This document shows positions 8,375-34,721 of a stretch of 64,000 nt of DNA, one piece after another. The DNA is from Dictyostelium discoideum (Eukaryota). Under the pieces are notes generated by a model, which was not told the DNA's origin, did not search any database, and saw nothing but the letters and a program-made list of their open reading frames with translations. The position numbers and the translations under genes were made by a program. The stretch covers positions 224,001 through 288,000 of the forward strand of contig CM000150.2 of NCBI GenBank assembly GCA_000004695.1. The letters run 5' to 3'. The first letter of the stretch is position 1; the number at the start of each line of letters is the position of its first letter.

Positions 8375-8661
8375 ATAACTTGAAAACGATTCATTATTTT
8401 TGGAAATACATAACAAAAAAAAAAAAATAATAATAAATAAAACAAAATACTTTATATATATAAATTTGTGGTTGATTTTGTTGTTTATGATTTATATATC
8501 TCTGAACTATAATTTATTTGGACAAAAATTTAATGAAATTTCAAAATATAAAAAAAATTAAATATATAATAATATTTATTTTAAATTAATTTAAATGAAA
8601 TTATTGTAAATTTCTTTTTTTGGTTTTTTCCTAGACACTAATCAAATTACCCAGTCCGCTA

Positions 8662-8692
<31 letters not shown>

Positions 8693-9307
8693 ATTGTTAA
8701 AATTATCTTTTTTATCTTTATTTTTATTTTTTAATTTTTTATTTTTTTTAATTTTTTATTTTTTTCCGATATTTTTATTATTTTTTATAGTTGCATATTT
8801 CTTGAGGTTTATTTAAAAGTTAAAGTGAATTATCTGTGTCTATTTTTTTTATTTTAAATAATAAAGAACAAAAAAGGAAAAAAAAAAAAAAAAAAATTTA
8901 AAATTTTGAAGATCTGGCACATATGGACCATATCTGTCAAAATCGATTTTGGTTTGTTCATGAATTAATTCAATGGGAATAAAAAAAAAAAAAAAAAAAA
9001 AAAAAATTGGTTTTATTTATTATTTTTTAGTTAATAAAATTAATTTTTTATTATTTTTTTTTTATTCCCATGGTGAATTATAATTTTTTAATGTACCAAA
9101 TTAATAAAGGAAGGAAAATTTCGAAATGAGTGTTTAAAAAAATTAAACAATGTTGTAATAAATTAGTCTTAAAAAAAAAAAAAAAAAAAGATTTTAAAGA
9201 TAAATTTTATAATTTTTTGTTTTGTTTTTAATTTTTTCCTCAAACATATGTTTTTTATTTATTTATTTTTTTTATTTTTTTTTAATTTTTTTTAATTTTT
9301 TTTATTT

Positions 9308-9799: not shown

Positions 9800-10788
9800 A
9801 TGAATAACAACCAAAATATGAATAGAAACTACAATAACAATCAAAATAATAGTAATAATAATACTAATAATAACGGCAATAGTAACCAAAATAATATGGG
9901 TATGAATATGAATATGAATATGAATATGAATATGAATATGAACAATAATAACAATATGAATGGAATGGGTGGAGGTAATAACATGATGATGAATAATGGG
10001 ATGAATAATTTTAATAATTCATCAAACTCTTTTATGTATAATAACAATAATACTAATATGAATGGCATGAATAATATGAATATGAATAATTTCAATGGTT
10101 ATAATAATAATAATAATAATAATAATAATTATAACGGATCTAATAACATGAATGGTGGAAATAATAATAATAATAATAATAATATGAATAACCATAATAA
10201 TAATAATATTAATAATAATAATAACTATAATAATAACAATAATAACAATAATAACAAAAAAGTTATACTCCCAAAAAATTTTACAAACCACGATGGCCCA
10301 ATTCTCATTAAGGATAATAATGGTAATGATTTCTTTAATTTACATGTATTTACACATTTTGAAAAAAAAAAAAAAAAAAAATGTTTAAAATGATAAATCA
10401 TTTTTACTTTCACAAAAAAAAAAAAAGAAAAAGATATGTTTGGTTTTTTTTTTTTTTTTTCTTCCTCTTTCTTTAAATGATCAACCATTTTTACTTTAAC
10501 AAAAAAAAAAAAAAAAAAAGATATTTTTTTTCTTTTTTTTTTTTATTATTTTTTTTTTATTTGTTTTGAATGATTGATTTGGATACAAACTTTTGAATGA
10601 AACATTTTTTTTTTATCATTTTTTTCAAAAATAAATTTATTTATTTATTTTTGTTTCAACCCATAAATACTAATCTTTTATTATAAAATAATTTATTCAC
10701 AATTTTTTTTTTTTCTACACTGACTTTGATTTTATATATCTTTAAATTGTCCCTTTTTTTTTTTTGATATCAAAAATAATAATTATTA

Positions 10789-10819
<31 letters not shown>

Positions 10820-12723
10820 TTTTTTTTTTTTGTTTTAGGTAAAGTTATAGGTGAAAAAGAAAAACTTGGTAGAACTCTTTTTGTTAGAAATGTTGCATAC
10901 TCCATTAAAGAAGTTGATATTCCTGCTATATTTGCAAAGATTGGTGAGATTAAAAAAACATTTTCTTTGTTAGAGTCAAGAGGTATTGCTTTTATTTCAT
11001 ATGTAAGGTTTTTTTTTTTTTTTTTTTTTTTTTTATTTTTTTTTATTTTTTTTATATATATCCCAGAATATATTTTTATTTACTAACCAATGTATTATTT
11101 TAATTTTCATTTACTAATCAGTATGATTTGAGAGATGCTGAAAGAGCAAAAAATGAAATACAAGGTACAACACTGGATGGTAGATCCATTGATATCCATT
11201 TTTCAATTCCAAAGGAGGAAAGTGGACTTGAGGACAATGCCGGTTTTATTCATGTCAAAAATCGTGATGTTCCTTTGAATGAGGTCAGAATTTTCTTTTC
11301 TAGCTATGGTGACATTAAGGATGTTACAGAGTTTAATCGTGATCAAGTGTGAGTAATCAAATAATAATAATAATAACAACACCACCACCAAAAGTATATT
11401 GAGTTTTTACTAATATTAGGTATATTTATATATTTATTTGTAGACTTGTTGAGTTTTATGATTTAAGAGCATGTGAAAAAGCATTGGCAGAGGCCAATGG
11501 GGTGAAATTAGGTGACCAAACATTAGATTTGGACTATTACACTCCAAAGGAAATACCAGCTATCATTGATGCATATGAGGGTAGAAAACAAAACAATAAC
11601 AATAGTAACAACAGCAACAACAATAATAGAGGTGGAATGAATAATCGTAATAACTATAACCGTAGAGATAATAATAACAACAACAACAACAACAACAACA
11701 ATGACGATAGTGATAATAGAAAGAGAAATAATATGGGAGGAAACTTTAATAATAACAATAGAGGAATGGATTTTAATAAAAGCGGCCCAATTAGAAATGT
11801 TTATCAAACTGATAGAAATCCAGATTACAGAAGACGTGATGATAACAATTATAATAATAGTAATAGTAATAACAACAACTCTCGTAAGTATACAGATTCA
11901 GGTGACAAAAGTTACAAAAGTGAGTGATGAATTTTGATTAAAAAAAAAAAAAATTTCTCTTCTCTCTTTAACCATTTTGAGAATTACAATTAAATGTATG
12001 TATTTTCATTACAAAATTTATTAACCATATCTTTATTTTTCAGGTAATCAAAATAACTACAGTAACAGTGTGAATAACTATAATAATAATAATAATAATA
12101 ATAATAGTAACAATAATAACAATAATAATAATAATAGCCACAACAATATGAACCAAAACAGTTATTACAATGATAATAGTGGAGGTGGTATTTACAATAA
12201 TATGAATAGCAATTTCAATAGTAATAATAATAATAATAATAATAATAGTGGTAGTAATAGTAATACTAATGGTGGGTGGAATAATAATAATAGTAATAGT
12301 AATAATATGAACAATATGAATATGAATAATAATATGAATAATAATATGAATAATAATATGAATAATAATATGAATAATAATATGAATAATAACATGAACA
12401 ACATGAACAAAAATATGAACAACAACAACAACAATATGAACAATAACAACAACAATAACAACATGAACAATAGCAACAACATGGGCTACGGAAATAGCAA
12501 TAATAGTAATTATAATTTTAACTATAATAATATATCTAATCCCTCTAATAATTTTAATAACAATAATTATAATAATTCATTCATAAACTATTCAGAGCCA
12601 AGTTTCCCTAATGATGGCGCAAGCCCAGAAATCTTGGCAAATATATCTCAACTAGCCCAAACTTTGAAAATTCCATTCCAATGGAACGCAAATAATATTA
12701 GTAGCAATGTACAAAATAAATAA
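9800..12723 (+). CDS. Mei2-like RNA-binding protein (two Mei2-type RRMs) with very long Asn/Met-rich low-complexity N- and C-terminal regions; join(9800..10322,10839..11002,11122..11348,11444..11919,12044..12723)
   Basis: Exons 2-4 encode GRTLFVRNVAY...GIAFISY|YDLRDAERAKNEIQG...DIHFSIPKEE and GFIHVKNRDVPLNEVRIFFSSYGDIKDV...LVEFYDLRACEKALAEANG. These align by eye with Mei2/AML RRM1-RRM2 signatures (RTLFVRNI..., GFVMISYYDIRAA, DIHFSIPKDN, FIEFYDVRAAEAAL). Every intron begins GTAATG/GTAAGG/GTGAGT and ends TAG/CAG, and phases are consistent. The real ATG is at 9800, preceded by a (CAAAA)n leader. The stop is at 12721-12723. Confidence 0.6.
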
Positions 12724-12907
12724 GATTTCCTGTTCTCTCTCTTTCTCTCTTCAAACAATTACAACAAATTAATAAACTTTAAAAATTTTAATACACATTT
12801 TTTTTTTTTTTTTTTTTTTAATAAATAATATTTATGTTTATGTTTTTATTTTTATTTTTATTTTCCTTGTATTTGTATTTTTATTTTCCTTTGTATTTGT
12901 ATTTTTG

Positions 12908-12909
<2 letters not shown>

Positions 12910-12987
<78 letters not shown>

Positions 12988-12988
12988 T
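12910..12988. repeat. (TTA)n trinucleotide microsatellite (~25 units) in the 3' flank of the Mei2-like gene / 3' flank of the SET-domain gene
   Basis: An uninterrupted TTATTATTA... run is visible. It is preceded by a duplicated roughly 26-bp unit (TTCCTTGTATTTGTATTTTTATTT). Confidence 0.85.
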
Positions 12989-12991
12989 TAA

Positions 12992-14491
12992 TTATAATTC
13001 ATCTTTAATCTTTCTATCTACACTATCTTTACTATCTTTACTATCGATTGTATCTATATTTTCTTGAAGTTTTGTATATACATTGGAAAGGATTTGTTTT
13101 TCTTGAAAAGCCAAATTAAAGGCCAATTTGGAACGTGCTGAAAGTTGATTATACTCTTTTGAAAGTAAAAACTCTTTATCCTGTATGATTGTTGTTGGAT
13201 AATGTCCAATCTTTAATGATACCAATCTCTTTAAATATTCCAATAACGATTCTTGCTTGTATGACATATACTTTGAAATCTTTAATAAATCCTCTGTCAA
13301 TGAATCCATTGAAATCTTTAATTTTATATCTTTGGTTTCTAATAATTTATTAACTAAATAATATTTATCATCTTTAATTGGATCCTATTTTTTAAAAAGT
13401 AAATTAATTAAAGAGAAATAAAATAAAATAAAATAAAATAATTTTTTTTAAAAAAAAAAACTTACATCAAGATTAATTGTTTCTAATAATTCTTCCATTA
13501 AAACATTTACACAAGATTTATCATCAATTTGGTTGGGTAAATAACCATAGTCCACTAAAAGATCACTTCCACAATAGTGATGATCATAGCTTACAAATAT
13601 TTCTTCACCTTTTTTAATATCTTTGATGGCTTTTACATCGACAGAACCCAACTCTTCATTGTAATCGATCTCAGCTGATGGTTGATTGCCATGATTGAAA
13701 TAATCAACAATTGGTGGAACCACAGGTGATAATTTCATTTGTTTGCCATCGGAGCCTACACTATCTGGATCGGTGACATAAATTTTACGAGCTGTAATGG
13801 TTGAATGTGCCCACCTAAATTGATCCCAACCGATGATGGTTGATTGACCTTGACACATTTCCAAGATCACATTATCTTTGAATAGGGTTTGTGATAATTG
13901 ATCGTAGAGTTTGGTTGCTACCTCTTTCTCAACCATGATATCTACAAAGGCAGGTGAACCAGCAAGGTATTCAATCTCTTTCTCGTCAAAGTACAAGGAT
14001 GTATCATAGTGGGTTGGTAATGAAGTAACCCATTCCTTTAGATTAAATGTTTCTTTGGCCATACAATGTTTGTAAATAATTAAACCAACCGCTAATATAT
14101 CCTCTTGTGCCATATTAAAGTGAACCATTCTTTCAAAGATATCTCTTTGTTCCACTTGAATAGTATCTACACTTAGACAACTTGTCCATTTGACTGCGAG
14201 TAACTCTGTTCCACTTTCAATCTTTGCATCGGCAAATACACCATATTCATCCTCTTTTCTATCTTTTTCCTTTAAAATCTCTTGCTCATCTTTAATTAAC
14301 TTTTTTTGAACAGAGAATAAAGGGTTCTTTTTATAGAATCTCGACCATTTATTCAATCTATTAATTGATCTTTTTCGATATTCATTGATTTTATCTTTTT
14401 CACTGGTTTCATTTGATTTTGTTACTTCTCCAAATACAAATGATATCGTTATTAATAATAATAATACAACAACTAATGTATTAAGTTTCAT
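12992..14491 (-). CDS. SET-domain protein methyltransferase (SETD3/LSMT-like, with C-terminal Rubisco-LSMT substrate-binding-like helical region), N-terminal signal peptide and C-terminal KDEL; complement(join(12992..13384,13466..14491)), 472 aa
   Basis: The N-terminus MKLNTLVVVLLLLITISFVFG|EVT is a classic cleavable signal peptide. SET motifs are present: DYFNHG (the NH motif) and GEEIFVSYDHHYCGSDLLVDYGY (the post-SET ELxxSYG..LLxxYGF region). The intron (13385-13465) has donor GTAAGT and acceptor ATAG, in phase 0. The final exon ends ...VDRKIKDEL-TAA, the canonical ER-retrieval signal. Confidence 0.6.
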
Positions 14492-14721
14492 TTTTTTATT
14501 TTTTATTTTTTTTATTTTTTTTTATTATTTTTATTTTTTTTTTGTAAAAAAAAAATTTAAAAGAATAAAATTTATAAAAAAAAAAAAAAAAAATTAAAAA
14601 AAAAAAAAATTAAATAATTTTTTGGCGCCTCTACTAAAAAAATAAATTATTTTTTTTTTTTTATTTTTTTCATTTTTTTTTTTCCAAACTGTTCTTTATC
14701 TGAGAACATATATATATAAAA
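14492..14721. promoter_or_regulatory. 230-bp bidirectional promoter region between divergent SET-domain gene (ATG 14491, - strand) and msh6 (ATG 14722, + strand)
   Basis: The two genes are head-to-head and their start codons are 230 bp apart. The region is pure A/T, with oligo(dT)/oligo(dA) runs of the kind that precede Dictyostelium transcription starts. Confidence 0.4.
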
Positions 14722-15224
14722 ATGAAGCCTAATAATATGAAACAAACAAATATTAGTCAATTTTTTGCTCCAACAAAACAACCAGAGCCAATTATAGAGG
14801 TAAAAAAAAAAAAATTGATAGTTTTTTATTTATTTTTTTTTTTATTTAAATCTAATGGGTTTTAAAATTTTTTTTTTTCATTTATTTAGGAAGGATTTGA
14901 TTCATTTTTTGATGATATACCTACAGAAGAGTTAGAACCAGATTTAAATTCTATACCAATTTCCTCTTCACAGCAAACATCTACATCAAATACCTCTTCA
15001 CAACAAACATCTTCAGCAAATACATCATCTTCAGCCACTACTACCACTACTACTAATACTAATTCACAAATACCGAAAGCACCAACAACACCATCAAAAC
15101 TAAAGCTACCAACTTCTTTCACATCAAAATCAAATACACCAACCAAATCATTACCACCATCAAATTTTAGTTTGGTAGTCAATGAACAAGAAGAAGAAAA
15201 TGAAATGAACGATAATTCAAAACC

Positions 15225-15255
<31 letters not shown>

Positions 15256-18200
15256 AATTTATTTAAAAGTAATATAACCAGTAATAGTGGTGGTAGTAGT
15301 AATGATTTATTTTCTAGATTTAAAGATGAAAAACCAAAGACTACAACTACCCTTTCTACACCTTCAAAACCATTATCGCAACCACAAAGAAATAACACAA
15401 ATGAAATATCAAAAAAAAGAAAAGAAATGGATTTTAATGAAGATGAATCGAATACAAATTATGATAATAATAATAATGATGTTGAGGATTTAGATGAGTT
15501 TTGTTTTGTTAATAAAAATAAACCATCATCATCATCATCATCATTAAATACCAATACTACAACTACACCAAAAGCACCAACTATAACACCAAAAACTCCA
15601 ACTAAAACTCCAACAAGAAGACCAGTCGTTACATATGATGAGGATGATGACGATGATGAACAAGATGATGATGAGGATGACGACGATGATGACGATGATA
15701 AAAAATCAAAATCAACAACAACGACAGCAGTAAAGAAAAAAGGTAATGCATTTGGTAAAAAAGATAAAAAAGAGATAGAAGAGAGATATTCATTCCTTGT
15801 CAATATAAAAGATGCCAATGGTAATCCAAAGGATCATCCAGATTATGATAAGAGAACATTACATATACCAGCAAGTTGTCTATCGAAATTCTCACCATTT
15901 GAAAGACAATTTTGGGATATTAAATCAAAAAACTACGATACGGTTGTATTCTTCAAAAAGGGTAAATTCTATGAACTCTACGAGAGTGATGCTGATATCG
16001 GTCATCAACAACTTCACTTGAAACTTACTGATCGTGTCAATATGCGTATGGTTGGTGTACCAGAGATGTCCTTTAATCATTGGGCTTCAAAGTTAATTCA
16101 TTTGGGTCATAAAGTGGCCAAGGTAGATCAAATGGAGACATCAATCGGCATGGCAAAGAGACAGAATGAAAAAGGTGGTCGTAATAAAAAAGATTCAATC
16201 ATTCAGAGAGAGTTAACTTCAATTCTTACCGCTGGTACACTTTTGGATGAACAAATGATCACCGATCAAACTTCAACCTATCTTATGGCCATAAAAGAGA
16301 ATGAATACGATAAACAGTATGGCGTTTGTTTTGTCGATGTATCAATTGGTGAATTCTATCTTTGTACCATTCAAGACGATGATAATCGTATGCAATTCGA
16401 AACGCTACTCCTTCAAATGATGCCAAAGGAAATCGTCTATGAAAAGGGCGCAACCTCTCCAAAAACCATCTCCATTATGAAGCGTGTTCTCTCCACTGTT
16501 AAACCAGTCATGAATGCTCGTCTCTCTCTAGAATATTGGGACCCAACAGACACTATGGAACGTATCACTCAGCTTTGTGGTGGTAAAACACCAGAGACCC
16601 TCTGTCAAATGAAAAATGAAGAATATCTAATGGGTGCATTGGGTGGTTGTATCAGTTATCTCATGGATATAAAGATTGGTAATAGCGTCGTTGAACAAGC
16701 TCGTTTCAAACGTTTCAATCCATTGGATATTGGAAACTCTATGATTTTGGATGGCCAATGCTTGGTGAACTTGGAGATATTCAACAATAGTACCGATGGT
16801 TCAACTGAGGGTACTCTTTTCAAGTTGATGGATCGTTGTACCACTGCCTTTGGAAAACGTATGTTTAGGCAATGGATTTGTAGGCCATTGGCAAATAAGA
16901 ATGCAATTGTTGATCGTCAAAAGGCAATCGAATTCCTAAGAGATAGTCCTGAAACCCTTCAAAAAGTAACGGCTATCCTCAACAAACTACCTGATCTCGA
17001 AAGAATGATCGCAAGAATTCGTGCTCAAACTTCAAAAATCTCTGATCTCATTTCAGTTTTAAATCACTTTGATAATATACATTCAAAACTATTGGAGCTA
17101 TTGGATGAAGCAGAACAAATCGAATCTATTCACCTAAGAAGTTGTCTTTTTATGGATAATCAACAAGACAACGACGATATTGATGAACAAGAAAACAGTA
17201 ACAACAACAACAACATTCGTTATTCTGGTTATCCAAATCTTAAACCCTATATTGAACGTGTTAGAAAGAGTTTTACCATTGAACAAGATCGTGTGGTACC
17301 ATCAAAAGGTTTGTTTTTAGAGTTTGATCAATGTTTAGGCAATATTCAATCATTGGAACAATCGTTTGCAAAACATTTAGAGGAACAAAAAGCTCATTTC
17401 AAGTGTAACAAAATCGAATATAAACATATGGGTAAAGAGATCTATCAAATAGAGATACCCGTTGCATTTACAAAAAAGCTTCCAGCAGGTTTCTCTTTAA
17501 AATCATCAAGCTCCAAAGTTAATAGATATCACAGTCCATTCGTTACAAAGAATCTCACCTCTTTGTTGGAAGAACGTGATACCTATGAGGTGTTATCAAA
17601 AGAGGTTTTGAAAAAGATTCTATCAAATTTCGCAATCTATTTCAATCATTTCCAAATTGCAATTACAAAACTCTCTCAATTGGATTGTCTGTTATCTTTA
17701 TATAAAGTTAGTTTTCAATCTTCAATTCAAATGTGTCGTCCCCTATTCGTCTCTAGTGATCAACGTGGTTTCATTGATGTAAAAGATATGAGACATCCTT
17801 GTATCTATTCAAAATCTGGTGATGATTTCATTCCAAATGATATATCTTTAAATACTGAAAATAATCCTCCATCTTTAATGGTTTTAACTGGTCCTGTAAG
17901 TTTTATTAATAATTGTTAAAATTTAATTAATAACTAAAATTTAAATTTTTTTATATTTTTTTAGAATATGGGTGGTAAAAGTACATTATTACGTCAATCA
18001 TGTATTTTAGTAATCATGGCACAAATGGGTTGTTATGTATCAGCATCAAGTTGCGAAATGTCAATTGTAGATAGAATTTTCACTCGTTTAGGTGCAAATG
18101 ATAATATTTTAGCAGGTCAATCAACATTTATGGTTGAATTGGCAGAAACAAGCGCAGTTCTAAAGTATGCAACCAAACGATCATTGGTTATTTTGGATGA

Positions 18201-19052: not shown

Positions 19053-21068
19053 ATGGAGAAACACCAAAACCAAGTAATTGAGGAAAATAGATCAAAACCA
19101 TTGATCAATTTAACCTTTTTTATCGATTCAAAGAGTAAATTTAAAGTTTCTAATTACACTCTATCAAAATTAATTAAAGATGAATTCGGTGGGTCAATTG
19201 CCTTTACATTGAATCCAAAGGTTGATTATGTTATAACAACATCAGCAAACTTTTTTTCAACCAAAACCACCACTTTTTTAAGTAATCAAGATCTCTCAAA
19301 AATAAAATTAATTAACGAGGATTATTTCATTTCACAACAAAAACTTGAACCAACTCAAAGAAGTAAAATTAATGATTCTTATTCAATCGGAAATAAACAA
19401 GATTCTCAAGTTGTTAATGTCTGTAAAAAAGAAAATGATGTTGTGGAAAAAGCTGATGATGATCTATTGAAAATTATCATTAACCCAAAACATATTCCAT
19501 CTGTTTGTTATGGAGCTAATGAACTAAAACAACCTTATTTTCCAGAAGAATATTTAATTTTAAAATCAAATTTATTAAGTGTATGTATTTTTTTTAAAAA
19601 AATATAAAACTTTAAATCCTCTTACTATTTATTGATTTATTAATTTATTTATTTTTTTTAGAGTACAATCATTGGTAAACAAAATACAAATAAATTTTTT
19701 TATTTAGAATTACATCAAGCAATTGATAATAATTTGAAAAAGTTTTATAGAATTTTCACACAATTTGGAAGAACTGATGAAATCCAAAAATCAAATTCAC
19801 AACATAGATATGTTAGCAATGATTTAAAAGAGGCTATGGCATTGTATTCATCAATTTACAGTCAAAAGATTGAAAGTGATAATGGATATATTGAGGTTAA
19901 AATGAATAGTATAACCAAAATTGGTTCAAAATTAAAGTTGGCTCAATTAAAACAACAAAAAGAGAATGATGTAAATGCAAATACTCACATCAAGGTTTAC
20001 AACGAAGAAACCGGTGAAGAAGAGACTGGGCAACAATCTTTGTTTCAAAGATCCTACATTGAAACCAATGTTTCTAAACTAATGGACATTATCTATAAAG
20101 AAGCATCTAAATGTTTAATTAAAAACTTTTCTGTAGAGGTCACTGAAAATGGTATTGAAACTCAACTTGGTGCTCTTTCAATGGCTCAAATTGAAGAAGC
20201 AAAATCAATATTAAATGAAATCAATAATGTTTTAAATAAAGATGGTATTGATAATCAAGAAAATTTGGAAATGCTATCATCTAGATTCTATCAATTAGTA
20301 CCATCAAAAATTAGTACAAAAAAGAATAGGGATTCATCGAAATCAGTAATCAATTCTTTTGAATCGTTGAATCAACTTTCAGAGTTGATGAATATGATGA
20401 AAGATTTAACCAATTCATTTAATTCAAACAAAACAACAAGTGAATCAAAAAATCATTTGGATATGAAATATTATGCATTGAATACCCACATTGAACATCT
20501 TCATCAAGCAAGTGCTGGCTATCAAATTTTCATTCGTAATTTCCTATCGAACCCACACCACCAAAAAGCCATTGATAATGGAGAAATCAAAATTCTCAAT
20601 TGTTACAGATTGGATAAGAAATTAGAAAGTGATAATTTTCTTGATGTAGGAAATGTGCAATATTTATATCATGGTAGTAAACCACAAAATCTTGTTGGTC
20701 TATTATCAAGAGGTATTCTTCCACCAGATTATGTCAAACAAATTGGAGGTAAAAGAACTGATTTTGGATATCTTGGAAGTGGTATTTACTTTTCAGACGA
20801 TGTGGTTTCCTCAACTTACACCTCACCAATTGGTGAAAAGGGTTCTAGATTTATCATAATGTCATCTGTTTCATTGGGAAAGGTTAAAGAATTTAGTAAA
20901 ATTCAACCATCATTACAATGTGCACCATCAGGCCATCATAGTTGCAAAGGTTTGAAATCAACTCCAACCAACCCAACAGATTTTAAAAACAATGAATATG
21001 TAGTATTCAATCCAAATCAATCAAAATTATCTTTTTTAATTGAATATATTGAAAATTATAAAAAATAA
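19053..21068 (+). CDS. Poly(ADP-ribose) polymerase family protein with BRCT-like N-terminal domain, WGR domain, PARP regulatory and catalytic domains; join(19053..19580,19662..21068), ~644 aa
   Basis: The catalytic H-Y-E signature is present: YLYHGSKPQNLVGLLSRGIL (H-G-S), GSGIYFSDDVVSSTY (Y) and NNEYVVFNPNQSKLSFLIEY (catalytic Glu). These align with PARP1/2/3 catalytic cores. The WGR domain spans the intron (LKSNLLS|TIIGKQ...FYRIFTQFGRTDEIQ). Exon 1 has BRCT-like hydrophobic periodicity. The intron (19581-19661) has donor GTATGT and acceptor TAG. Confidence 0.75.
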
Positions 21069-21415
21069 ATAAAAAGTTTAATAAATAAATGATTAATTCT
21101 ATTCATTATTAAAATTATTATATGAAAAACATACAGAATATTTTTTATTATTTTAATATTATTAGTTAATTAAATGTATTGAAAAGTGAATGAATAAATG
21201 ATTAATTCTATTAATTATTGCTATTATTTATAATATGACAAACACAACCACAATAATATTTAAATATTATGAAAATTTAAAAAAATAAAAAAATAAAAAA
21301 CATTTAACAAATGAAGAAATGATTAATCATTCTATTATTATTATTTATAATATGACAAACACACACAGTGAATAATTTTTATTATTAAATTTATTTTATT
21401 ATTTAATTTAAATAT
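21069..21415. repeat. Intergenic direct repeats between convergent PARP and transporter genes (three copies of AATAAATGATTAATTCTATT(C/A)ATTATT-type unit, two copies of TTATTTATAATATGACAAACACA)
   Basis: The sequence repeats are directly visible at about 21081, 21190, 21310 and at 21228, 21345. The region is the shared 3' end zone of two convergent genes. Confidence 0.5.
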
Positions 21416-23229
21416 TTAATTAATTGAATATTTTTTAATTAAAGATTCTTCTTCATAATCTAAAATATTATTTGATTTGATTTGATTCTTTTGTTTATAT
21501 TTATTATGGAAGTAACGTGTAGCAACGATTGCTAAATTGATGGCAACAGCGACTAAAGTTTTCCATTGAATAGAGAAAGGTGAGAGAGCTAAAATAAGAA
21601 TTGTGAAAATCATAGGAGAAGCCATATAAGGTAATAACCATCTGGTGGTGATAGCTTTATAGGGACGATCATAATCTGGATTCCAAACGAATAATTTAAT
21701 GTAAATTATTACTTCAAGTGTGACTACGATACTGTAGATTGACATATCCAAACTCATGATAGCTTGGAAAGGCATAAGAATGAGAATACATACGATGGCA
21801 GCATTTGTAAGGATAGCAACGAAAGGTGTTTCACGACGTGGTAATAACTTTGAGAAAACCTTTGGAAGATAACCTCTATCACTTAGACTGTATAAATTTC
21901 TAGCAGATGTACAAAGATTACATTGGAATAAACCGACAGAGGAAACCATACCACCAATACTTAACAAGATACCTAACCATTGTCCACCTACTTTTAACGC
22001 GATGATAGAGAATTGACCATCTTGCCAATTGGCATAATCTCTATCATATTGCATACCAACCAACAATGGTAACACATAACTAGTGATTGTGATAATCATT
22101 ACACCAATGATACCAATTGGATAGTTTCTTTTTGGATTTTTAACCTCACCTGCCAATTGACCAGTTGCATCGAAACCACTTGTTGACCAAACCAAATTGG
22201 TCAATAGTACACCCCATTGAACACCTTTAAAATTTGAAAGACCACCATCAACTCTTAAAATCTCACCTAATTCTACATGACCAATACCCATTACTACCAT
22301 AATAATGAATGGTGTCAATAGAATAACAGATAGAATGGTACTAAAAATTCCAACTTGTTCTGCACCCCAACAATTCATCAATACAATTAATATGATCACT
22401 GCAAATGCAATCAATAATCTACAATGAGTACATGTTTCCATACCACCACCCCATAAATCATTTTCATAGGGTGTACCATTAAAGCAATTTGAAAAATATT
22501 GAACAAATAATACAGGATATAAACTTAAATCAACAATTGCTGCAAACCAACTAAATAATCCTAAACTTAAACTAACATATTCTCCAAATGCTTTTTCTCC
22601 CCACTTTTTTTTTTTTTTTTTTTTTAATTTTTTATAATAGATGTAAAAATAAATTAGTAATTTTTTCATTTTTTTTTATTTTTTTATAATAGATGTAAAA
22701 ATAATAATAATAGAGAGAAAAAAAAAAAAAAAAAAAAAAAATAAAAAAAAAAACTTACAACTGAACAACCACCATCTTTATTAACCATTAAACTTAACTC
22801 TGCAGTGATTAAACCATGTGGTATACACCAAAATATTGGTAATACAATATAAGTTAAAAGTACATATGCATAACTACCTGCACTAACACTACCTTCAATA
22901 CCAAATGGTCCACCTGATACTAAAAAATAACCAATAGAAAGAAATGATATAAACCCTATAGTTCTTGGTGGGTGATTACTTTGTGGTTCTGATTCTCCCA
23001 CTAAAATTTAAAAAATAAATAAATAAAAAAAAAATAAATAAAAAATATTAATGTTTTTATATATATATATATACATTAATATGTGTATATTATTTTCGAT
23101 ATATATTAACAAAAAATGATTTTATTAATTTTCTATTAATATTATTATTATTATTATTACTATTTTTCTTAATTTAATTATTATTCACTTACCTAATTTA
23201 CTGTGTTCATTTTCAATTTCGACTGTCAT
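21416..23229 (-). CDS. APC-superfamily amino-acid/polyamine transporter (plant PUT/LAT-like); complement(join(21416..22603,22759..23000,23193..23229))
   Basis: There are 12 predicted TM helices. The signature FLVSGGPFGIEGSV matches the PUT/LAT family (EVSGGPFGVE). Exon 1 is a 37-nt mini-exon ATGACAGTCGAAATTGAAAATGAACACAGTAAATTAG with a GTAAGT donor. Intron 2 has donor GTAAGT after ...NKDGGCSV. The exon 3 acceptor at 22604 (..AAAG|TGG) is the least certain boundary. Confidence 0.65.
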
Positions 23230-23642
23230 TTCTTAATTTTCTTGTAACCAACAACAATCATATGATTAAAAATGTAATATATTCTTTCTTTAAAATTTTG
23301 TGTAACTATTTAAAAAAAGAGAAAAAAAGAAAAAGTTTATAAATATCAAAAAATTAAAAAACGTCACATACAATAAATTTTTAAAAAAAGATATTTCGCA
23401 AATAAACGAGTTTTCAATAGTGGAAAAAAAAAAATTAAAAAAAAAATAAAAAAAATAAAATTTTAAAAAAAATTAAAAATAAAAAAAATTAATAAAAATT
23501 AAAATATATTGATCAAAAATTAATTAAAATTATTTTTTTTTTACAATTGAATCTTCTTTATTATAATTTTAAAATATTAAAACAAAAAGAATTAAATAAT
23601 AAAAAAAAAAAAAAAATAAAAAAAAGAATTTATTTATTAAAA

Positions 23643-23682
<40 letters not shown>

Positions 23683-23919
23683 GGAATTTTTAAACAAAAA
23701 ATAAACTAAAATTAAAGATATATATATTTGAATCTTTATTTGTAACAATTCTATTAAAAAAAAAAAAAAAAAAAAAAAACTTTTATTTACATTTATTATA
23801 AAATCAAATAGAATTAAAATATTAATAATAAAAATAAATATATAAAACTATTTTAAAATGTAATAACACTTTATAGAAATGATATTGTTTAGAATAATAA
23901 AAATTTTCAAAAAACAATA

Positions 23920-24470
23920 GCAATTTCATTAAATTGGGAAGAAGAAATTAAAAAAAATAAAATTAATAATCAATTACCATTTTATGAATATGTACTAGTA
24001 GAATCAAGTCATCGAATGTATTTAATTTATAAGAGTGGTACAATTGGTAATTCTCTAAGCCAATTGTAAGAAGTAATGGTATTAATTTATTTGAGCTTAA
24101 ACAAATCCAGTCCAAAGGTTAATAATGATGAAAATGTTGTTTTATTTTCAGAAACACTAGTGTCGGATGCGTATCATTCCATATGTTCCTTTATGTATCA
24201 TTATCAAGGAAGTCATTTGTAATGTTTGAAGTGGTTACCATTAAAAATTACAAAATAATGTTGAAGATGATATTTGGGAAACCATTGAAAAACATAATGT
24301 AAATATTTATTTAGAATTACCAATTGTGTAGAGATATCATAAGAAAATCCAAATGCAGAGAGAATACATCCAAAATATGATATATCACTTTTAAAGCAAG
24401 TTTGGAATGGTACTCAAGTTATTGAAAATTCAATCCAACATGATATATTATTTAAATAATAATAATTTTA
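23920..24470 (+). pseudogene. Degenerate partial copy (pseudogene fragment) of the downstream acyl-CoA synthetase gene, homologous to its 25640-26200 segment
   Basis: Clear nucleotide and peptide similarity over about 550 bp to the downstream gene. Examples (pseudogene versus gene): CCATTTTATGAATATGTACTAGTAGAATCAAGTCAT versus CCATTTTACGAATATGTACCTGTAGAATCAAGTCAT; TTGTAATGTTTGAAG versus TTGTAATGTTTGAAGG; ACCATTGAAAAACATAA versus ACTATTGAAAAACATAA. The fragment carries multiple in-frame stops and frameshifts. Confidence 0.7.
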
Positions 24471-24758
24471 AATTACCAGATAATATTGAAAATCTTCAAT
24501 TATTTTATAACATTAAAGATTTATTTATTAAAAACTCATTTAAAAATATTTAATCTATAATAAAAAAAAGAATAAAGATATTTATTATGGAAATTCAAAA
24601 TTAAATAAAAACATAATTTTATAACCCCTAACCATAATTAATTTAAAAAAACATTTTTTATAGGAGGATGTCAAATTTTTATTAATAATGAAAATAATAT
24701 ATATTTAAATTATATATATATATTTTATTTATTATATCTCCTGACATAAAAAGACATG

Positions 24759-24791
<33 letters not shown>

Positions 24792-24893
24792 AATATATAT
24801 TTTTTTTTTATTTATTAATTTTAAAATTTTTTTTTATTAAAATAACTTGAATATACAATAAAAAAACAACTGAAAAAAAAAATTAACAATAAA

Positions 24894-26686
24894 ATGTTTA
24901 AATTAAGTGATCCTTTTGATTATGAAAATGATTATAGTTACTCTCAAATAAATCCAATTTCATTTTGGGATGAAGTTGCAAAAAAATTTGTTCACTGGTA
25001 TGTAATTCAGAAAAATAAAAAAAAAAATAAAAAAACAAAAAAAAAAAACAAATATTAACATATAATAATACAAAATAAAAAAAAAAAAAAAGGGATAAAA
25101 TATATGATAAAGTTTATAGTGGTGATGAAATATATCCAGATTGGTTCCAAGGTGGTGAATTAAATACATGTTATAATGTTTTAGATAAACAAGTTAAAAA
25201 TCCATTAAAAAGGGATAAAGATGCATTAATTTATGAATGTCTATATTTAAAGAAAACTGTAAAATTAACATACTATCAATTATATGAAAAAGTATGTGAA
25301 TTTTCAAGAGTACTTTTAAATATAAATATTTCCAAAAATGATAACGTTTTAATTTATATGGCAAATACTCTAGAACCATTAATTGCAATGTTATCATGTG
25401 CTCGTATTGGCGCAACTTTTACAGTTTTATTCGAAGGTTATCCAGTTAAAAGTTTAATCGATAGAATTGAAACAATAACCCCAACATTAATAATTACATC
25501 AAATTATGGTATATTAAATGATGAATTAATAACATTTACACCAAATTTAAAAGAAGCAATTCAACAATCAGCTTTTAAACCAAATCATATTATCACTCAT
25601 TTTAGAAATGATTATGAAGACATTGAATTTAAAAATATTATAGGAACTATGACAATCATACCAAATACATTAGATTGGGATAAAGAAATTCAAAAAATAA
25701 AATATAATAATCAATCACCATTTTACGAATATGTACCTGTAGAATCAAGTCATCCATTAAGTATTCATTTTACAAGTGGTACAACTGGTAATGCTAAAGC
25801 GGTTGTAAGAGGTAATGGTAGTAATTTAGTTGGATTAGTTTATAATTGGTATAGCAGTATGTCTTCTAAAAAATATGATGATTCAGTTTACTTTTCACAT
25901 TCAAGTATTGGTTGGATTACATTTCATATGGGTTTAATTGGATCATTAGCACTTGGAAATACATTTGTAATGTTTGAAGGTGGTATTACAAAACCAATTC
26001 ATTATGAACATTATTTATGGGCAACTATTGAAAAACATAAAATCAACACATTTTTAACATTGGCAAAAACAATAAGATACCTTATAAAGAATGATCCGGG
26101 AGCTACTAATATAAATTCAAAATATGATTCATCAAGTTTACTTTCAATTTGGATAGCAGGTGAAGTTATTGAACAATCAATTCCTGAATATATTGAAAGT
26201 AAATTAAAATGTTGTTCCGGAAATGTATATGGACAAACTGAAGGTGGTTGTATATCATTATTTAATTGTAAAAGAATATATAATAAACAGTATAATACAC
26301 TAATTAATCCAACTCCATTTTTAAAACCATCAATATTTTCAGAGGATGGTATTGAATTACCGGATAATCAAGTCGGTGAAATTGTATTCAAGTTACCAAT
26401 GCCACCAAGTTTTGCCACAACATTTTATAAAAATGAATTACTTTATAAAAAGATTTTCAATAAATTTCCAGGTTATTATAATAGTGGTGTTATAACATTT
26501 AAAAAAGAAATTGACTATTATGGTATTGTTTCAAGGGCAGATGATCAAATTAAAATTGGTGGCTTTAAAGTTGATTTAAATCAAATTGAAACATCAATTT
26601 TAAAACATCCATTAGTTTTAGAATGTTGTTCAATTGCTATATATCATCAAGATTTAAAAAATGTTCCAATTGGATTATTAGTTTTA

Positions 26687-26782
<96 letters not shown>

Positions 26783-27043
26783 CCAGATAATTCATCATCA
26801 TCATTATCATTATCATTAATTGATTTAAAAAATCAAATCAATAAAATTATTAAAAATGATATGGATTTTTATTCAGAATTAACAAAAATTATAATTGTTC
26901 CTCAACTACCAAAGACAAAAAGTGGTAAAATTCCAAGATCGATAGTTTCAAAGTTTTTAAATGAACCAAATTATCAATTACATGAATCATGTGATCATGA
27001 AGTTTTTTACTTAATAAAAGAGTTATATGTAGAAAATAATTAG
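24894..27043 (+). CDS. Short-chain acyl-CoA synthetase (acetyl/propionyl-CoA synthetase, ACSS-like, AMP-binding superfamily) with internal poly-Gln tract; join(24894..24997,25093..27043)
   Basis: Exon 1 ends ...ISFWDEVAKKFVHW. Exon 2 continues DKIYDKVYSGDEIYPDWFQGGELNTCYNVLDKQV, the ACSS N-domain pattern W..PY.KV...WF.GG.LN.CYN.LD. The AMP-binding core is IHFTSGTTGNAKAVV, with linker/A8 GEIVFKLPMPP and the ATP-binding Lys in LPKTKSGKIPRS. The intron is GTATGT..AAAG in phase 2. A (CAA)32 tract encodes Q32 at 26689-26783. Confidence 0.75.
26689..26783 (+). repeat. Pure (CAA)n trinucleotide repeat (~32 units) encoding poly-Gln inside the acyl-CoA synthetase CDS
   Basis: An uninterrupted CAACAACAA... 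run is visible in the sequence. It stays in frame within the CDS. Confidence 0.9.
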
Positions 27044-27536
27044 TATTGTTTTTTTTTTTTTAACATTTAATAATCCAAAAATTATAATAAAATTATTAAA
27101 ACTTATTTTATAAACAAAATGTTCAATTATTTATATTTTCAAATTTAAGTTAATCTTTTTTTTAAAAAATGGATAGTTTTTATATGTTTTAAAATTGTTT
27201 TTTTTTTTTTTTTTTTTTATATTCACCCACCCCAAAACTAGATATTAAAATTAATTTTTTACTCTCAAATTTATTATTAAAATACATAAAAATAAAAAAG
27301 AGTGAAAATTTTGAATGGAAATAAATTAAATGTAAAAATATATTTTTACCTTTAAATCTTTCTTTATTACAATTTTAAAATAATAAAACAAGAGGAATTA
27401 AGATCAAAATAATAATATTAAAAAAAAAGAAATGGAATAAAATAAAATAAAATAAAATAAAATAAAATAAAATAAAATAAAATCATTTTTTTTTTTTTTT
27501 TTTTTTTTTTTTATATGATATTTTTTATTGTGTTCA

Positions 27537-27652
27537 CTAAACAACACTAAGAAGAGCTAATAAAACAAAAGAAAGAACAGCAATTGAAAACTTTAAGAAA
27601 GTTGTTGAAGAAGGACTTGTCGAAGAGGGTATATTTGGTTGCTGTTGAATTG

Positions 27653-27683
<31 letters not shown>

Positions 27684-27726
27684 TTGTTGTTGCTGTTGTT
27701 GTTGTAGAATTGGTTGTTGTTGTTGC

Positions 27727-27757
<31 letters not shown>

Positions 27758-28874
27758 GCTTTAAATTATTATTATTAAATTGATAATTATTTGATAATAA
27801 ATGTTGTTTTTCAGAGAATTGAGAAGCATGAATTGAAGGTAAAGGATAAATTATAGAGAAAATTTGAAGAGGATATTTTGGATTATCGATTGAGCCAATT
27901 AAAAGAAAACTAATAGTACATGGACTATCATAGATTGGATGTAAATTTTCAGGCAAGGTTAATTGTTTTTTTTCGTTATCAGTCTCGTGAATGAAAACTT
28001 GATATGGATTTGATTTTGGTATTGAGATAAAGTTTGTAGAGGCACCAAAACTTTTACTCCTCATATGATTACGATCACCAATGTACTCTACATTTGAAAA
28101 CAGTGTGGCGGCATTCACCAAACTAAAATCAACACCAACTCTAACATCTGCTGAACAATGAATAAATCTAAGTGTAGTTCTCTTTTTTAATGATGGAAAA
28201 TTAAAATTATCTGATAAAATTGTTATTGAATAATTTGATCCATCATCATCAATATCTTCATCACTATTATTATTATTGCTATTATTTTTATTATCTTCTT
28301 CCTGTTTTTGCTCTTCTTGTTTTTTAAAAATACCAGTAGTAATTAAAGTATAGTCTGTATCATTTTCAATTTGAAAACGTTTAAATTCTAAATGTTTTTT
28401 TGATTTTGAATCATACAAATCAATTTGTATTAAACCAATAGGTATTGTTATATATTCTGAAACTGATAGATAGGCTAAGTTTTTAAATGAAACACTATTA
28501 TTAAAAACTATATCAACACCATCACTTTCAATCACTGTATTAATTATTTTAATCTTTGAATATAATTTAATTTGTTCTTGTTGTTGTTCTTGTTGTTCTA
28601 CCAGTTTATCGTTATTTAAATTTAAGTTTAAAATATTATAAAAATTATTATTATTATTATTTCCGTTATTATTATTATTATTATTATTATAGTACGCGTT
28701 TACTTTTATATGTGATGATAATATTACTATTGCCAATATTATCATTAAAAAACTATATATATTCTTTTTATTTGGTATTATTATATTTATTATTGTATCC
28801 TCCGTTTTCCTTTTAAAATTAGTAACCCTATACTCTTCATTGTTAGAAATGTTTTTAATGAAAGATAATTTCAT
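27537..28874 (-). CDS. Secreted/GPI-anchored cell-surface protein, DUF4397-like domain, poly-Gln tail; single exon
   Basis: The ATG is at 28874. There is an N-terminal hydrophobic signal/anchor (YSFLMIILAIVILSSHIKVNA). The central region LRFIHCSADVRVGVDF...SIPKSNPYQVFIHETDN resembles the bacterial/eukaryotic DUF4397 repeat (RFVHASPDAP.VDV). The C-terminus is Ser-rich followed by hydrophobic FLKFSIAVLSFVLLALLSVV, typical of a GPI-attachment signal. Confidence 0.5.
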
Positions 28875-29184
28875 TTGTCGTTTAACAATTGGGTTATTGT
28901 TATTTATTTATTATTTATTATTATTATTTACTATTATGATTATTATTGTTGATTATTATAATTATTATTATTACTATTATTATAATTATTATTATTTATC
29001 GTTCATTCAACCTATTTAACCGACCAAATGGAAATTTCCTTTTTTTTTTTTCCTTTTTTTTTTTTTTTTTTTTTTCTTTTTTTTTTTTTTTGAAAAATTA
29101 AAAATAAATTAATTAAATTGTAATAAAAATAAAAAAGAAAAAATAAAAAAATAAAAAAAATAAAAAAAATAAAAAATAAATTTA

Positions 29185-29218
<34 letters not shown>

Positions 29219-29566
29219 TAATTATTTGTTTGAGGAAAAAAAGACAAAAAATTTTTACCTACGATATAAAATAAAAATAGTAAATAAATAGTACTAATTC
29301 ACATGTGGGTTATGAAAATAAAAACAAAAAAAAATGTTTAATAATAATAATAATAATAATAATATAAAAATGTAAATTATTAAAAATAAAAGAAAAAAAA
29401 AAAGAAATCAAAATAATATATATTATTTATTATTTATTTTTATTATTGTTATGATTATTATTATTTTTATTATTACTATTATTTTTATTATGATGATTTA
29501 TTATTTTTAATATTTCTTAATAATCTAATAAATGCATATAAATCTTTATCTAATCTTTTTTGTGGA

Positions 29567-29598
<32 letters not shown>

Positions 29599-30496
29599 AA
29601 ATCAAAAATAGAAAAAAAAACAAAAAAACAAAAAAACAAAAAACAAAAAAAAAAATGAATAAATGCAAATAAATTGTTGGTTGATGAAATAAAATAATAA
29701 AAAAATAAAAATAAAAATATAAATAAAATAAAATAAATTAATAAAAGGACAAACTTCTCTTAATTTAAGGTGCTTTTTTAATAGAAATAAATTTTAAACA
29801 ATTTTTTTTTAAAAAAAAAAAACCAAAATAATTAAATAAAAAAAGAAAAAAGAAAAAAGAAAAAAAAATAAATAGAAATAAATTATTACTTTTTTTTTAT
29901 TTGTTTAAATTTTTATTTGTTTTTTTTTTTTATAAATATATTTTTTTTTTTTTCTTTTTTTTTATTTTTTTTTTTATATTTAAACAAAAATATGTCGATA
30001 GCCACATAGACAACTAACCAACTATGTGTTTATGTTAAAACCGACAAAAAAATAAAAAAAAAAAAAAATGAAAAAAAAAAAAAAAAAAAGTGAAAAAATA
30101 AGTTATATCGTTGATTTGCCTACTTTTGCAAGAAAACCATTTAACCTAATATAACCATCAAAACATTTTTTATTTTTTTATTTTTATTTTTATTTTTTTA
30201 TTTTTATTTTTTATTTTTTTTTCTTGGCTGAACAGGAAGTTTTTTTTTTTTTTTTTTTTTTTTTTCCTGATTCTAAACAAAAAATTTAATTTATTTCCAA
30301 AGCTTAAAAAAAGAAATAAAAAAAAACCTAAAATTGCCAAATCAAGAAGTTATTATTATTATTATCATCATCATTATTTTCTTTAAATACTATTACTTTT
30401 TTTATTTTTTTTATTTTTTTTAATTTTTTTTTTTTGTTTGTTTAATTTTTTATTTTTTAATTTTCTTTTTTTTTTTTTATTTTTTTTTGTGTCGCT

Positions 30497-32534: not shown

Positions 32535-33366
32535 TTATAATCTTCTTTTCTCTTTTTTAACAGTTTTTTTCTTTTCTTCATCTCTTTTTTGTTTTTCTAA
32601 AGCTTCTTTATCACGCTGAACTTTTTTTTGATGTTCAATCTTTGATTTCTCTCTTTTTGCTTTCTCTTCATCAGCGATTCTCTTTGCATTTAAATTTTCA
32701 CCTAAACCAGATTCAATCTTATTATCTTCAATCTTTTTCTTTTCAATATGATCAGATAAAATAATATCACCATTTTCATCAACATCTTCTTCATCATACC
32801 CATATTTTGATAATAATGCATCTCTTTTCTTTTGTTCTTCTCTTGACATTTTATGATATGGACTATTTTTTTATTTTAAAATCAAAGCAAAAAAAAAAAA
32901 ATATGATAAGATATATATATTAGTTTTTTTTTATTTTTTTATTTAAAAAATATCTTGTATTTTATTTATATATCTTGTTTTTTATTTTTATTTTTTATTT
33001 TTTTTTGTTTTTTGTTTTTACATACTTTTCATATTTTTCTTCTTCATTAATTTCAGATTGAGTTGTTTCTTTAATTTTTAATTCTTGTTCTAATTTTAAA
33101 TTTGTTAATTTTAATTTATTTTCAGTTTCTTTATCATCGATAATCTCTTTATGTCTAATTAACATTTCATTACAAAATGATGTTGAATCTTTTTCAGTTA
33201 ATGATTCAAGAAATTCACTAATTGATTCTTTTTTTTCATCATCATTAGATGATGAATCTGAAATAATACCAAATATATATTCAACAACCATTGATGAATC
33301 ATCAGTTTCAAATTCCTTTAATGATTTTTCAATATATTCTTTTAATTCTTTTTCTTTTCTACTCAT
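32535..33366 (-). CDS. CCDC43 (coiled-coil domain-containing protein 43) homologue; complement(join(32535..32862,33026..33366)), ~222 aa
   Basis: The two separate ORF-track ORFs are joined by an intron (32863-33025) with donor GTATGT and acceptor ATAG in phase 2. Exon 1 (VEYIFGIISDSSSNDDEKKESISEFLESLTEKDSTSFCNEMLIRHKE) aligns with human CCDC43 ([43 protein letters not shown]). Exon 2 (SREEQKKRDALLSKYGYDEEDVDENGD, Lys/Glu-rich tail) aligns with EEEKQRKAALLAQYADVTDEEDEADE plus the basic C-terminus. The size matches (human 224 aa). Confidence 0.6.
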
Positions 33367-33509
33367 TCTAAATAAATTTATAATTATAATGTATTATTAT
33401 TTATTTTATTATTATTATTTATTATTATTATTATTTCGTAAAAACAAAAATAAAAAAAAAAAAAAGATATTTTTTGGTGTTTTTGTGTAAATTGGGAAAA
33501 AAATTAAAA

Positions 33510-33557
<48 letters not shown>

Positions 33558-33710
33558 AAAAAACATTGAAAAACATTGAAAAACTAAAAATAATTTTAAA
33601 GGATAAAGTAATTGTTGTTTAAACTAAAAAAAAATAAATAATTGTTTATTCTTTATAAAAAAAAAAAAATAAAAAAAAATATAATATATTATTATTATTA
33701 TTAATTATTA

Positions 33711-34721
33711 TTAATCTCTCCAAGTTACATCAACTTGATCAGTTCTAAAACGTTGAGTTGTAGTTGTTTGAGATAATGGAGTTGTAGTACCATTTTTAAA
33801 AATTAAATAACCAGCCCAAGCAATCATAGCTCCATTATCAATACAATAACGTTCATCAATTGCAAATGATTTACCATTACGTTGAGAGATCATTTGTTGA
33901 ATCATCTCTTGTAAACGTTGATTACAACCAACACCACCAACTGCTAAAACTTCATTTTGACCACAATGTGCCAATGCACGTTCAGCAGTTTCAACCAACA
34001 TTGAAAATAGATGTTCTTGTAAACTATAACATAAATCTTCCACACTATGTTGAGTCTTGTTTTGTTTATTCTTTACCATACCTTCAATTGAGGAAAGTAT
34101 ACCACTGAATGATACATCCATACCTTTGGTTATATATGGTAGCTCTATTAAATTCTTACCTTTCTTTGCCAACTGTTCAATGTTGTAACCTGGTGATGGG
34201 TCATTTGGAATTTGAATTACTCTTGCGAATCTATCCAAACAATTGCCTACTGCAATATCAATGGTTTCGCCAAAGATACGATACTTTTTTAACGAGTATG
34301 AGATCACTTGGGTGTTACCACCACTAACATATAGAATTGTTGGATCAACAGCACCTGTAATTAAACGACCCATCTCTATATGAGCTATACAATGATTGAC
34401 TGCAACGATTGGTCTATCCCAAAGTTGTGATAACATTCTAACTGTAACTGCAACTGATCTCAATGGTGGTCCCATACCTGGTCCTTTTGTATATGCTAAA
34501 CAATCGATATCTGATGGTTTCAATTTCGATTCTTCCAATGATTTCTCAACTAATGATAATATAAATGATCTATGATGTTTGGCTGTATCTTTTGGTAAAA
34601 ATCCTTCTCCTGGTGGTGTTATAAATGTATGTCTAATATTTGATAAAATTGTACCATCATCTTTAACAATACCAATACCTAATTTATTGGCACTACCTTC
34701 AAATCCCATAATATATACCAT
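33711..34721 (-). CDS. osgep: tRNA N6-adenosine threonylcarbamoyltransferase Kae1/OSGEP (KEOPS complex catalytic subunit); single exon, 336 aa
   Basis: The ATG is at 34721. [15 protein letters not shown] matches the Kae1 N-terminus (LGIEGSANK.GVG). Metal-binding His motifs are present ([11 protein letters not shown], ...[12 protein letters not shown]). The ASKHA/Kae1-TsaD fold is highly conserved across the full length. Confidence 0.85.

Follow-up and report, generated by a model that had tools for sequence, protein, structure and literature searches.

Remains of an acyl-CoA-synthetase-like gene upstream of a surviving paralogue in Dictyostelium

In a 64,000-nucleotide stretch of Dictyostelium DNA (GenBank assembly GCA_000004695.1, contig CM000150.2, positions 224,001 to 288,000; hereafter the window), we identified a relic lying upstream of an acyl-CoA-synthetase-like gene, which we consider, with a probability of about 0.9, to be a non-processed pseudogene, the remains of a once complete acyl-CoA-synthetase-like gene beside the one that survived. 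It combines the features of this class of pseudogenes, namely homology to a gene family, disabling lesions, unconstrained substitutions and a retained genomic context. We document here its homology, its anatomy and the subfamily to which it belongs, together with its neutral pattern of substitution and what has become of the locus in two further genomes. The relic represents the ordinary turnover of a gene family by birth and death, and involves no new mechanism.

Extent and anatomy of the relic

The downstream gene is one of a large family, termed "acetyl-CoA synthetase-like", which is found in tandem clusters in group-4 Dictyostelium. The genomes used for comparison come from Holland et al. 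2025 (PMC12745789), and the arrays compared were those of D. discoideum ACTFIW (L001), D. cf. discoideum ACTFIZ (L002), D. citrinum (L004) and D. dimigraforme (L005). The genes of the window are Dictyostelium-type, and its base composition is 6-13% GC between genes and 23-30% GC in coding DNA. A lenient local nucleotide alignment of the relic reached into the A/T-rich flanks (23725-24690), and these extensions were left out, taking into account only blocks backed both by BLAST E-values and by the orthologue.

A BLASTN comparison of positions 23800-24700 with the whole window gave one outstanding non-self match, in which 23917-24297 aligns with 25658-26040 over 399 columns, 72.7% of them identical (183 bits, E = 3.4e-48), whereas the AT-rich or low-complexity background stayed at or below 48 bits. 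In a TBLASTN search, the 684-aa downstream product maps the relic to its residues 200-398 (window 23857-24435), and the peptide strings PFYEYV, VESSH, SGT.GN, FVMFE and KYD are common to the relic and this product. The initial annotation had reported a homology of about 70% to the AMP-binding region of the downstream gene, extending beyond A/T low complexity, and both statements are confirmed by these searches. The span it had assigned, 23920-24470, is indeed homologous, but falls short of the true extent of the relic, which runs from ~23787 to ~24588.

At its 5' end the relic retains promoter-proximal or 5'-UTR DNA of the dead gene (23787-23857, + strand), ending immediately 5' of the ancestral start codon. 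Positions 7311-7369 of L002, which sit upstream of a full-length relative (gene L002:7382-9439), match window 23789-23847 with 91.5% identity over 59 nt (E = 2e-17), and this is their unique non-poly-A top match in the whole window; the 5' flank together with the ATG matches L002:7311-7388. The same 5' stretch is also retained at the syntenic position in two further loci, L006 and L008, which are described below. The junction of the first deletion follows at 23857-23862 (+ strand), where about 704 bp of the ancestral gene are gone. This loss took what followed in exon 1, the whole intron and ~600 bp at the beginning of exon 2, and with them the N-terminal domain. The ancestral ATG (23858-23860) is contained in the 6-bp motif AATGTA, which occurs twice in L002, at 7380-7385 (spanning the ATG) and at 8084-8089, and as a single copy in the window, flanked by the 5' flank homology on one side and by sequence corresponding to L002:8090 onward on the other. 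As the DNA is A/T-rich, we take this microhomology as suggestive only.

The middle block (23857-24446, + strand, 590 bp) comprises the remains of the central AMP-binding core, corresponding to ancestral residues ~200-399, with a degraded A3 motif that reads YKSGTIGN, not YTSGTTGN, and with roughly 7-9 small indel events, most of which are frameshifting. It is followed by the junction of the second deletion (24443-24450, + strand), which removed about 650 bp corresponding to L002:8683-9332, including the motifs A5, A7, A8 and A10. Its breakpoints are defined by the end of the middle block at L002:8682 and the beginning of the 3' block at L002:9333, and the microhomology at the junction is limited to 2-4 bp of A/T, which is not significant. 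The 3' block (24447-24553, + strand) preserves the last ~35 codons in a single frame, encoding YLNNNNFKLPDNIENLQLFYNIKDLFIKNSFKNI versus FLNNENFKLPDNIENLQLFYNIKHLFFNNSYKNI in P0024, the product of L002 gene 2, and closes with the ancestral stop TAA (24551-24553). Beyond it, the 3' flank of the dead gene (24554-24588, + strand) aligns with L002 up to 24566. Window 24447-24566, that is, the last ~105 bp with 3' flank, is 87.5% identical to L002:9333-9452, and window 24496-24588 aligns at 87.5-88.5% with the reverse complements of L006 (8436-8528) and L008 (1514-1606). Together, the two internal deletions (about 704 and 650 bp) account for the loss of about 64% of the coding sequence.

Between the relic and the surviving gene lies an intergenic spacer, the presumptive promoter of the latter (24589-24893, + strand), of which 24765-24893 can be aligned with L002:9888-10000, immediately 5' of the L002 counterpart of the surviving gene. 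The distance from the stop of the relic to the ATG of its neighbour (24894) is 340 bp, and not ~400 bp as first described, compared with about 560-850 bp for the spacers of intact arrays. The placement of the relic inside the promoter of its neighbour was also overstated, since the relic occupies the upstream slot of a tandem pair and the 340-bp spacer comes after it.

Each forward frame of the relic is interrupted by 18-21 stop codons, and the longest ORF starting with ATG has only 48 codons. When read in the frame of the orthologue, 16 of 233 codons are disrupted by indels and two stops are in frame. The frameshift-corrected peptide matches positions 139-300 (of 384) of the Pfam AMP-binding profile (PF00501) with 31.5 bits, the cutoff being 29.9 bits. 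Of the adenylation motifs, only the damaged A3 (KSGTIGN) is left, and the relic does not contain A3, A5, A7, A8 and A10 in one frame, as a functional ANL / AMP-binding enzyme does. These lesions bear out the stops and frameshifts reported by the initial annotation, and its proposal of a decaying remnant of a tandemly arranged acyl-CoA-synthetase-like gene is upheld by the indels, the stop codons, the two deletions and the neutral pattern described below. We considered retroposition, which would make the relic a processed pseudogene, but rejected it, as homology is retained in both the 5' and the 3' flank; no terminal poly-A is found at the 3' end of the relic homology, and the presence of the intron cannot be scored in the relic because the corresponding region is deleted.

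Closest relatives and substitution pattern

At the nucleotide level, the middle block is 84% identical to L002:8084-8682 over 609 columns, 79% identical to its D. citrinum and D. dimigraforme counterparts, and 67-71% identical to other family members. L002:8084-8682 is part of the gene immediately upstream of the best L002 counterpart of the window's intact gene, and the identity of the relic is 84-87% to L002 gene 2, versus 67-72% to the adjacent gene. For the protein comparison, the frameshift-corrected peptide was built along the L002 reading frame, and all identities were calculated over the same 215 columns, giving 80% to P0024 (L002 gene 2), 74.5% to P0031 (D. citrinum), 62% to P0039 (D. 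dimigraforme) and 44.7% to the product of the adjacent intact gene. Ranking the family by summed blastx bits is misleading, because frameshifts split the HSPs, and codon-guided reconstruction and a tree were used instead. The neighbour-joining tree places the relic, on a long branch, as sister to P0024 and then to P0031, and the intact gene is found in a different clade. The closest relatives of the relic (P0024, P0031 and the gene at L005 13436-15507) are all upstream-type, and the order of a relic-type gene followed by an intact-type gene recurs in L002, L004 and L005.

We then considered 52 diagnostic sites, defined as those at which none of three upstream-type genes agrees with any of four downstream-type genes. 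The relic presents the upstream-type state at 47 of them, and there is no state among the 52 that is exclusive to the relic and its neighbour. These sites bear directly on the origin suggested by the initial annotation, in which a recent tandem duplication would have taken ~550 bp from the middle of the adjacent gene, the copy then degenerating. Such an event would explain why the relic is homologous to the middle of that gene (72.7%, E = 3e-48), as well as the position of the relic on the same strand and 340 bp upstream of it. However, the relic belongs to a different and older subfamily, to which it is considerably closer in both nucleotide and protein sequence (80% versus 45% in the latter), the diagnostic sites are of the upstream type with none exclusive to the neighbour, an ATG, a 5' flank, a stop and a 3' flank unlike those of the neighbour have been kept, and the order of upstream-type and downstream-type genes is found in three other species. 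From the diagnostic sites and the flanks, a partial duplication of the adjacent gene is refuted, and we would give it practically no chance. The similarity of ~70% between the relic and its neighbour is simply the standing divergence between two old subfamilies, whose functional upstream-type and downstream-type members are 71-72% identical. Gene conversion from the neighbour was also rejected, because at the 52 diagnostic sites the relic shares no state exclusively with it.

Outgroup genes from D. citrinum and D. dimigraforme allowed the substitutions separating the relic from L002 gene 2 to be assigned to one branch or the other. The relic branch has accumulated 54 substitutions, distributed over codon positions 1, 2 and 3 as 15, 23 and 16 (chi-square p = 0.35), with a non-synonymous to synonymous count of 48:3, whereas the functional sister branch (L002 gene 2) has accumulated 13, distributed as 3, 2 and 8, with a count of 3:9. 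The substitution rate of the relic is about four times that of its functional sister (relative-rate binomial p = 4e-7), and the non-synonymous to synonymous counts of the two branches also differ (Fisher p = 2e-6). As a control, the branch of the intact neighbour presents 27, 15 and 44 substitutions at codon positions 1, 2 and 3, after correction for the frame (exon 2 begins at codon position 3), which is the usual signature of purifying selection. Given the even spread over codon positions on its branch, the relic is therefore evolving neutrally. The non-synonymous excess of 48:3 exceeds the naive neutral expectation, and is provisionally attributed to A/T-rich two-fold codons and to codons with multiple hits.

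The locus in other genomes and the surviving gene

The genes flanking the arrays of L001, L002, L004 and L005 differ from those of the window, L002 and L005 having CfaA_B_C and lipase genes in these positions. The downstream neighbour in the window, a DUF4397 protein (27537-28874, minus strand), led us to L006 in D. discoideum ACTFIW, and through the TsaD/Kae1-like protein (33711-34721), which is identical in the two, we arrived at L008 of D. discoideum ACTFIR. The gene order is common to the window, L006 and L008, with MutS, PARP and an amino-acid permease, then DUF4397, MPC, CCDC43 and TsaD, and the collinear flanking blocks of the window are about 84-95% identical to those of the other two. 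All that is left of the relic-type gene in L006 and L008 is the 5' flank (to window 23846) and the last ~60 bp with the 3' flank (from 24496); the deletion breakpoints, between window 23846 and 24496, are identical in ACTFIW and ACTFIR, and the deletion spans both deletion junctions of the window. The intact-type gene has decayed in L006 to four main pieces and a 36-nt trace, of 88-95% identity (window 24962-24997, 25788-25884, 26013-26251, 26541-26699 and 26772-27151), and in L008 only its 3' ~1 kb is left (window 26059-27151, 90-92%). The locus formerly held a two-gene cassette. Both of its genes are lost in D. discoideum ACTFIR and ACTFIW, whereas in the window lineage the downstream gene persists, next to more extensive remains of the upstream one.

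The cassette genes are 84-88% identical to the main-array genes versus 88-95% to the syntenic relics, and this closer relationship to the relics suggests that the cassette is an old segmental copy. We infer that two adjacent genes of the main array were copied as a segment later than the split of D. citrinum, at a time when the window lineage and D. discoideum had not yet diverged, and the following order of events can be proposed. A cassette formed by an upstream-type gene and then a downstream-type gene, both on the + strand, would have originated in the main tandem array and been inserted, as a copy, at a secondary locus flanked by the amino-acid permease and DUF4397 genes. In the window lineage, the upstream-type gene would have lost its function, and the dead gene would have gained frameshifting indels, stop codons and evenly spread substitutions, and lost about 700 bp and about 650 bp through two internal deletions. 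This would have left the promoter-proximal DNA, the ATG, the 590-bp middle piece, the last ~35 codons, the stop and the 3' flank, and the relic would now be functionless neutral DNA that is being lost. In our view, the cassette locus is a clean and datable example of birth and death in the expanded acetyl-CoA-synthetase-like family of group-4 Dictyostelia, with one cassette present in three states of decay across three closely related genomes.

Two further observations concern these loci. In L001 of ACTFIW (10001-18087) three intact-type genes follow one another in tandem, with 82-86% identity to the gene of the window. They lie among BTB/BACK and RSN1-type genes and have no upstream-type gene nearby, and this three-copy array at another locus indicates that the family disperses besides duplicating in tandem. 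In L006, a segment of about 420 bp that is richer in G+C (reverse complement 8530-8947), placed between the 3' end of the relic and the next spacer, has no counterpart in the window and may be a fragment of a mobile element.

The surviving acyl-CoA-synthetase-like gene (24894-27043, + strand) consists of exon 1 (24894-24997), an intron (24998-25092) and exon 2 (25093-27043), and this 684-aa gene model agrees with the GenBank annotation of a second assembly (L003, see below). Its Pfam architecture includes ACAS_N, AMP-binding and AMP-binding_C. The initial annotation had called it the functional copy, which holds as far as the open reading frame is concerned, but the invariant aspartate of the A7 motif is missing. 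This motif reads GYYNSG-VIT-FKK, versus GYYNSG-DLG-(F/Y)K in the others, and among 21 family members inspected the surviving gene is the only one without the aspartate, which is replaced by valine in a change specific to its lineage. The A7 change (window 26486-26500, GTT ATA ACA) is due to point substitutions and is identical in the independent assembly L003, and an adjacent G to T change in A7 is common to the surviving gene and its decayed orthologue in L008. In ANL enzymes the A7 aspartate binds the ribose of ATP/AMP, and for this reason the protein may be catalytically impaired. The C-terminal domain also includes a (CAA)31 polyglutamine tract (26689-26786), which was not found in the counterpart regions examined in L001, L002, L004 and L005, and for which there is no space in the L006 and L008 alignments. 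It looks like a lineage-specific expansion.

Annotation, possible functions and known systems

GenBank assembly GCA_054883475.1 (CM142508.1, locus L003) matches the window with 99.5% identity, and the only differences between them within 23300-24900 concern the lengths of homopolymers. In the annotation of L003, a multi-exon gene of 117 aa is placed on the relic (window 24016-24553, corresponding to L003:14315-14852, minus strand in L003), beginning at an internal ATG. The relic could thus be part of a real small gene, or provide exons to a functional transcript, and this would agree with the public model ending on the ancestral stop and with the existence of GT..AG combinations that allow an uninterrupted reading frame of 117 codons. 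However, this length is reproduced equally well by seven GT..AG combinations, all of which join stretches that do not keep the reading frame of the ancestral protein, and no Pfam domain above threshold is found in the simplest 117-aa product. The even distribution of substitutions over codon positions and the frequent indels denote a lack of coding constraint, the central block of the relic is deleted in two sister genomes, and the adenylation motifs are gone save the damaged A3. We regard a real gene at this position as very unlikely, and the 117-aa model is probably spurious, an artefact of prediction.

The initial annotation had also raised the possibility of antisense or regulatory transcripts, in which case the relic would have been co-opted as a regulator of its downstream paralogue, acting as a sense or antisense non-coding RNA, through small RNAs, or by promoter interference. 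The observations in favour are limited to its position, upstream on the same strand and with its own promoter-proximal DNA, and to the residual similarity between the two. Against this, exact matches to the neighbour reach no more than 18 nt (same strand) or 13 nt (opposite strand), compared with ~21 nt for typical small RNAs, and there are no Rfam matches at E ≤ 1 on either strand of window 22900-25200. Substitutions have accumulated about four times as fast on the relic branch as on its functional sister, which also indicates no constraint, and the spacer at 24765-24893 is conserved with L002 9888-10000, and therefore the promoter of the neighbour need not involve the relic. (No tRNA is found in window 20000-30000.) The regulatory role thus finds no support in the neutral substitutions, the Rfam search or the short exact matches, and we consider it highly improbable; judging from these sequence features, the relic probably has no function at the RNA level. 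It may still be transcribed, which is conceivable because its own promoter-proximal DNA and start codon are retained, and there is a slight chance that read-through or promoter interference could modulate the downstream paralogue, itself altered by the loss of the A7 aspartate and the gain of the 31-glutamine tract. In that case, we would be seeing in this pair a cassette in the course of being shut down, or else rewired, at the level of transcription.

With the relic taken as a non-processed pseudogene, the main use of these findings is in annotation, as the 117-aa call and the calls of 57-175 aa in the sister genomes deserve a pseudogene flag. The latter include a 60-aa gene in ACTFIW (L006:11396-11578) and genes of 57 and 175 aa in ACTFIR (L008:17784-17957 and L008:17996-18591), which are placed on the decayed positional orthologue of the intact gene and are likely pieces of a pseudogene. 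Elsewhere in L003, the TsaD/Kae1-like (336 aa) and CCDC43-like (222 aa) proteins are fused in the annotation into a product of 573 aa, spanning window 32535-34721 (L003:4179-6350). The two are separate in L006 and L008, and the window ORF at 33711-34721 has its own stop codon, so that the fused product is likely an annotation merge. The DUF4397 neighbour has 445 aa in the window, 399 aa in ACTFIW and 477 aa in ACTFIR, and includes an internally repetitive, glutamine-rich sequence around 27590-27810; a search for its homologues gave no D. discoideum AX4 protein, such searches being unreliable for low-complexity Dictyostelium proteins.

Regulatory pseudogenes are known in animals and trypanosomes, where they act on the parent gene as antisense RNA, small RNAs or microRNA decoys. 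The relic resembles them in its residual similarity and in its closeness to a live paralogue, but unlike them it has no inverted arrangement, its exact matches have 18 nt at most, and its sequence is not constrained. The ancestral gene and the surviving neighbour share the architecture of ANL enzymes of the acetyl/propionyl-CoA synthetase type, and the AMP-binding profile is still recognisable in the corrected peptide of the relic. In contrast to these enzymes, the relic lacks the N-terminal third and A5, A7, A8 and A10 and cannot encode an enzyme, and the surviving neighbour lacks the invariant A7 aspartate. A further comparison is with the non-processed pseudogenes of tandem families, such as the Dictyostelium tgr family, for which 38 genes and 26 pseudogenes, with numerous partial gene fragments, are described in AX4 (PMC12745789). 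The family of the relic differs from tgr, though in nothing essential, in being formed by acetyl-CoA-synthetase-like (ANL) enzymes and not by recognition genes, and the relic, unlike the tgr pseudogenes, is presently annotated as a protein-coding gene of 117 aa. Like those pseudogenes, it belongs to a multigene family, tandem or dispersed, and occupies a conserved slot beside a live paralogue, it has been disabled by frameshifts, stops and internal deletions, and it evolves neutrally, and, as in such families, different lineages have lost different copies at its locus.
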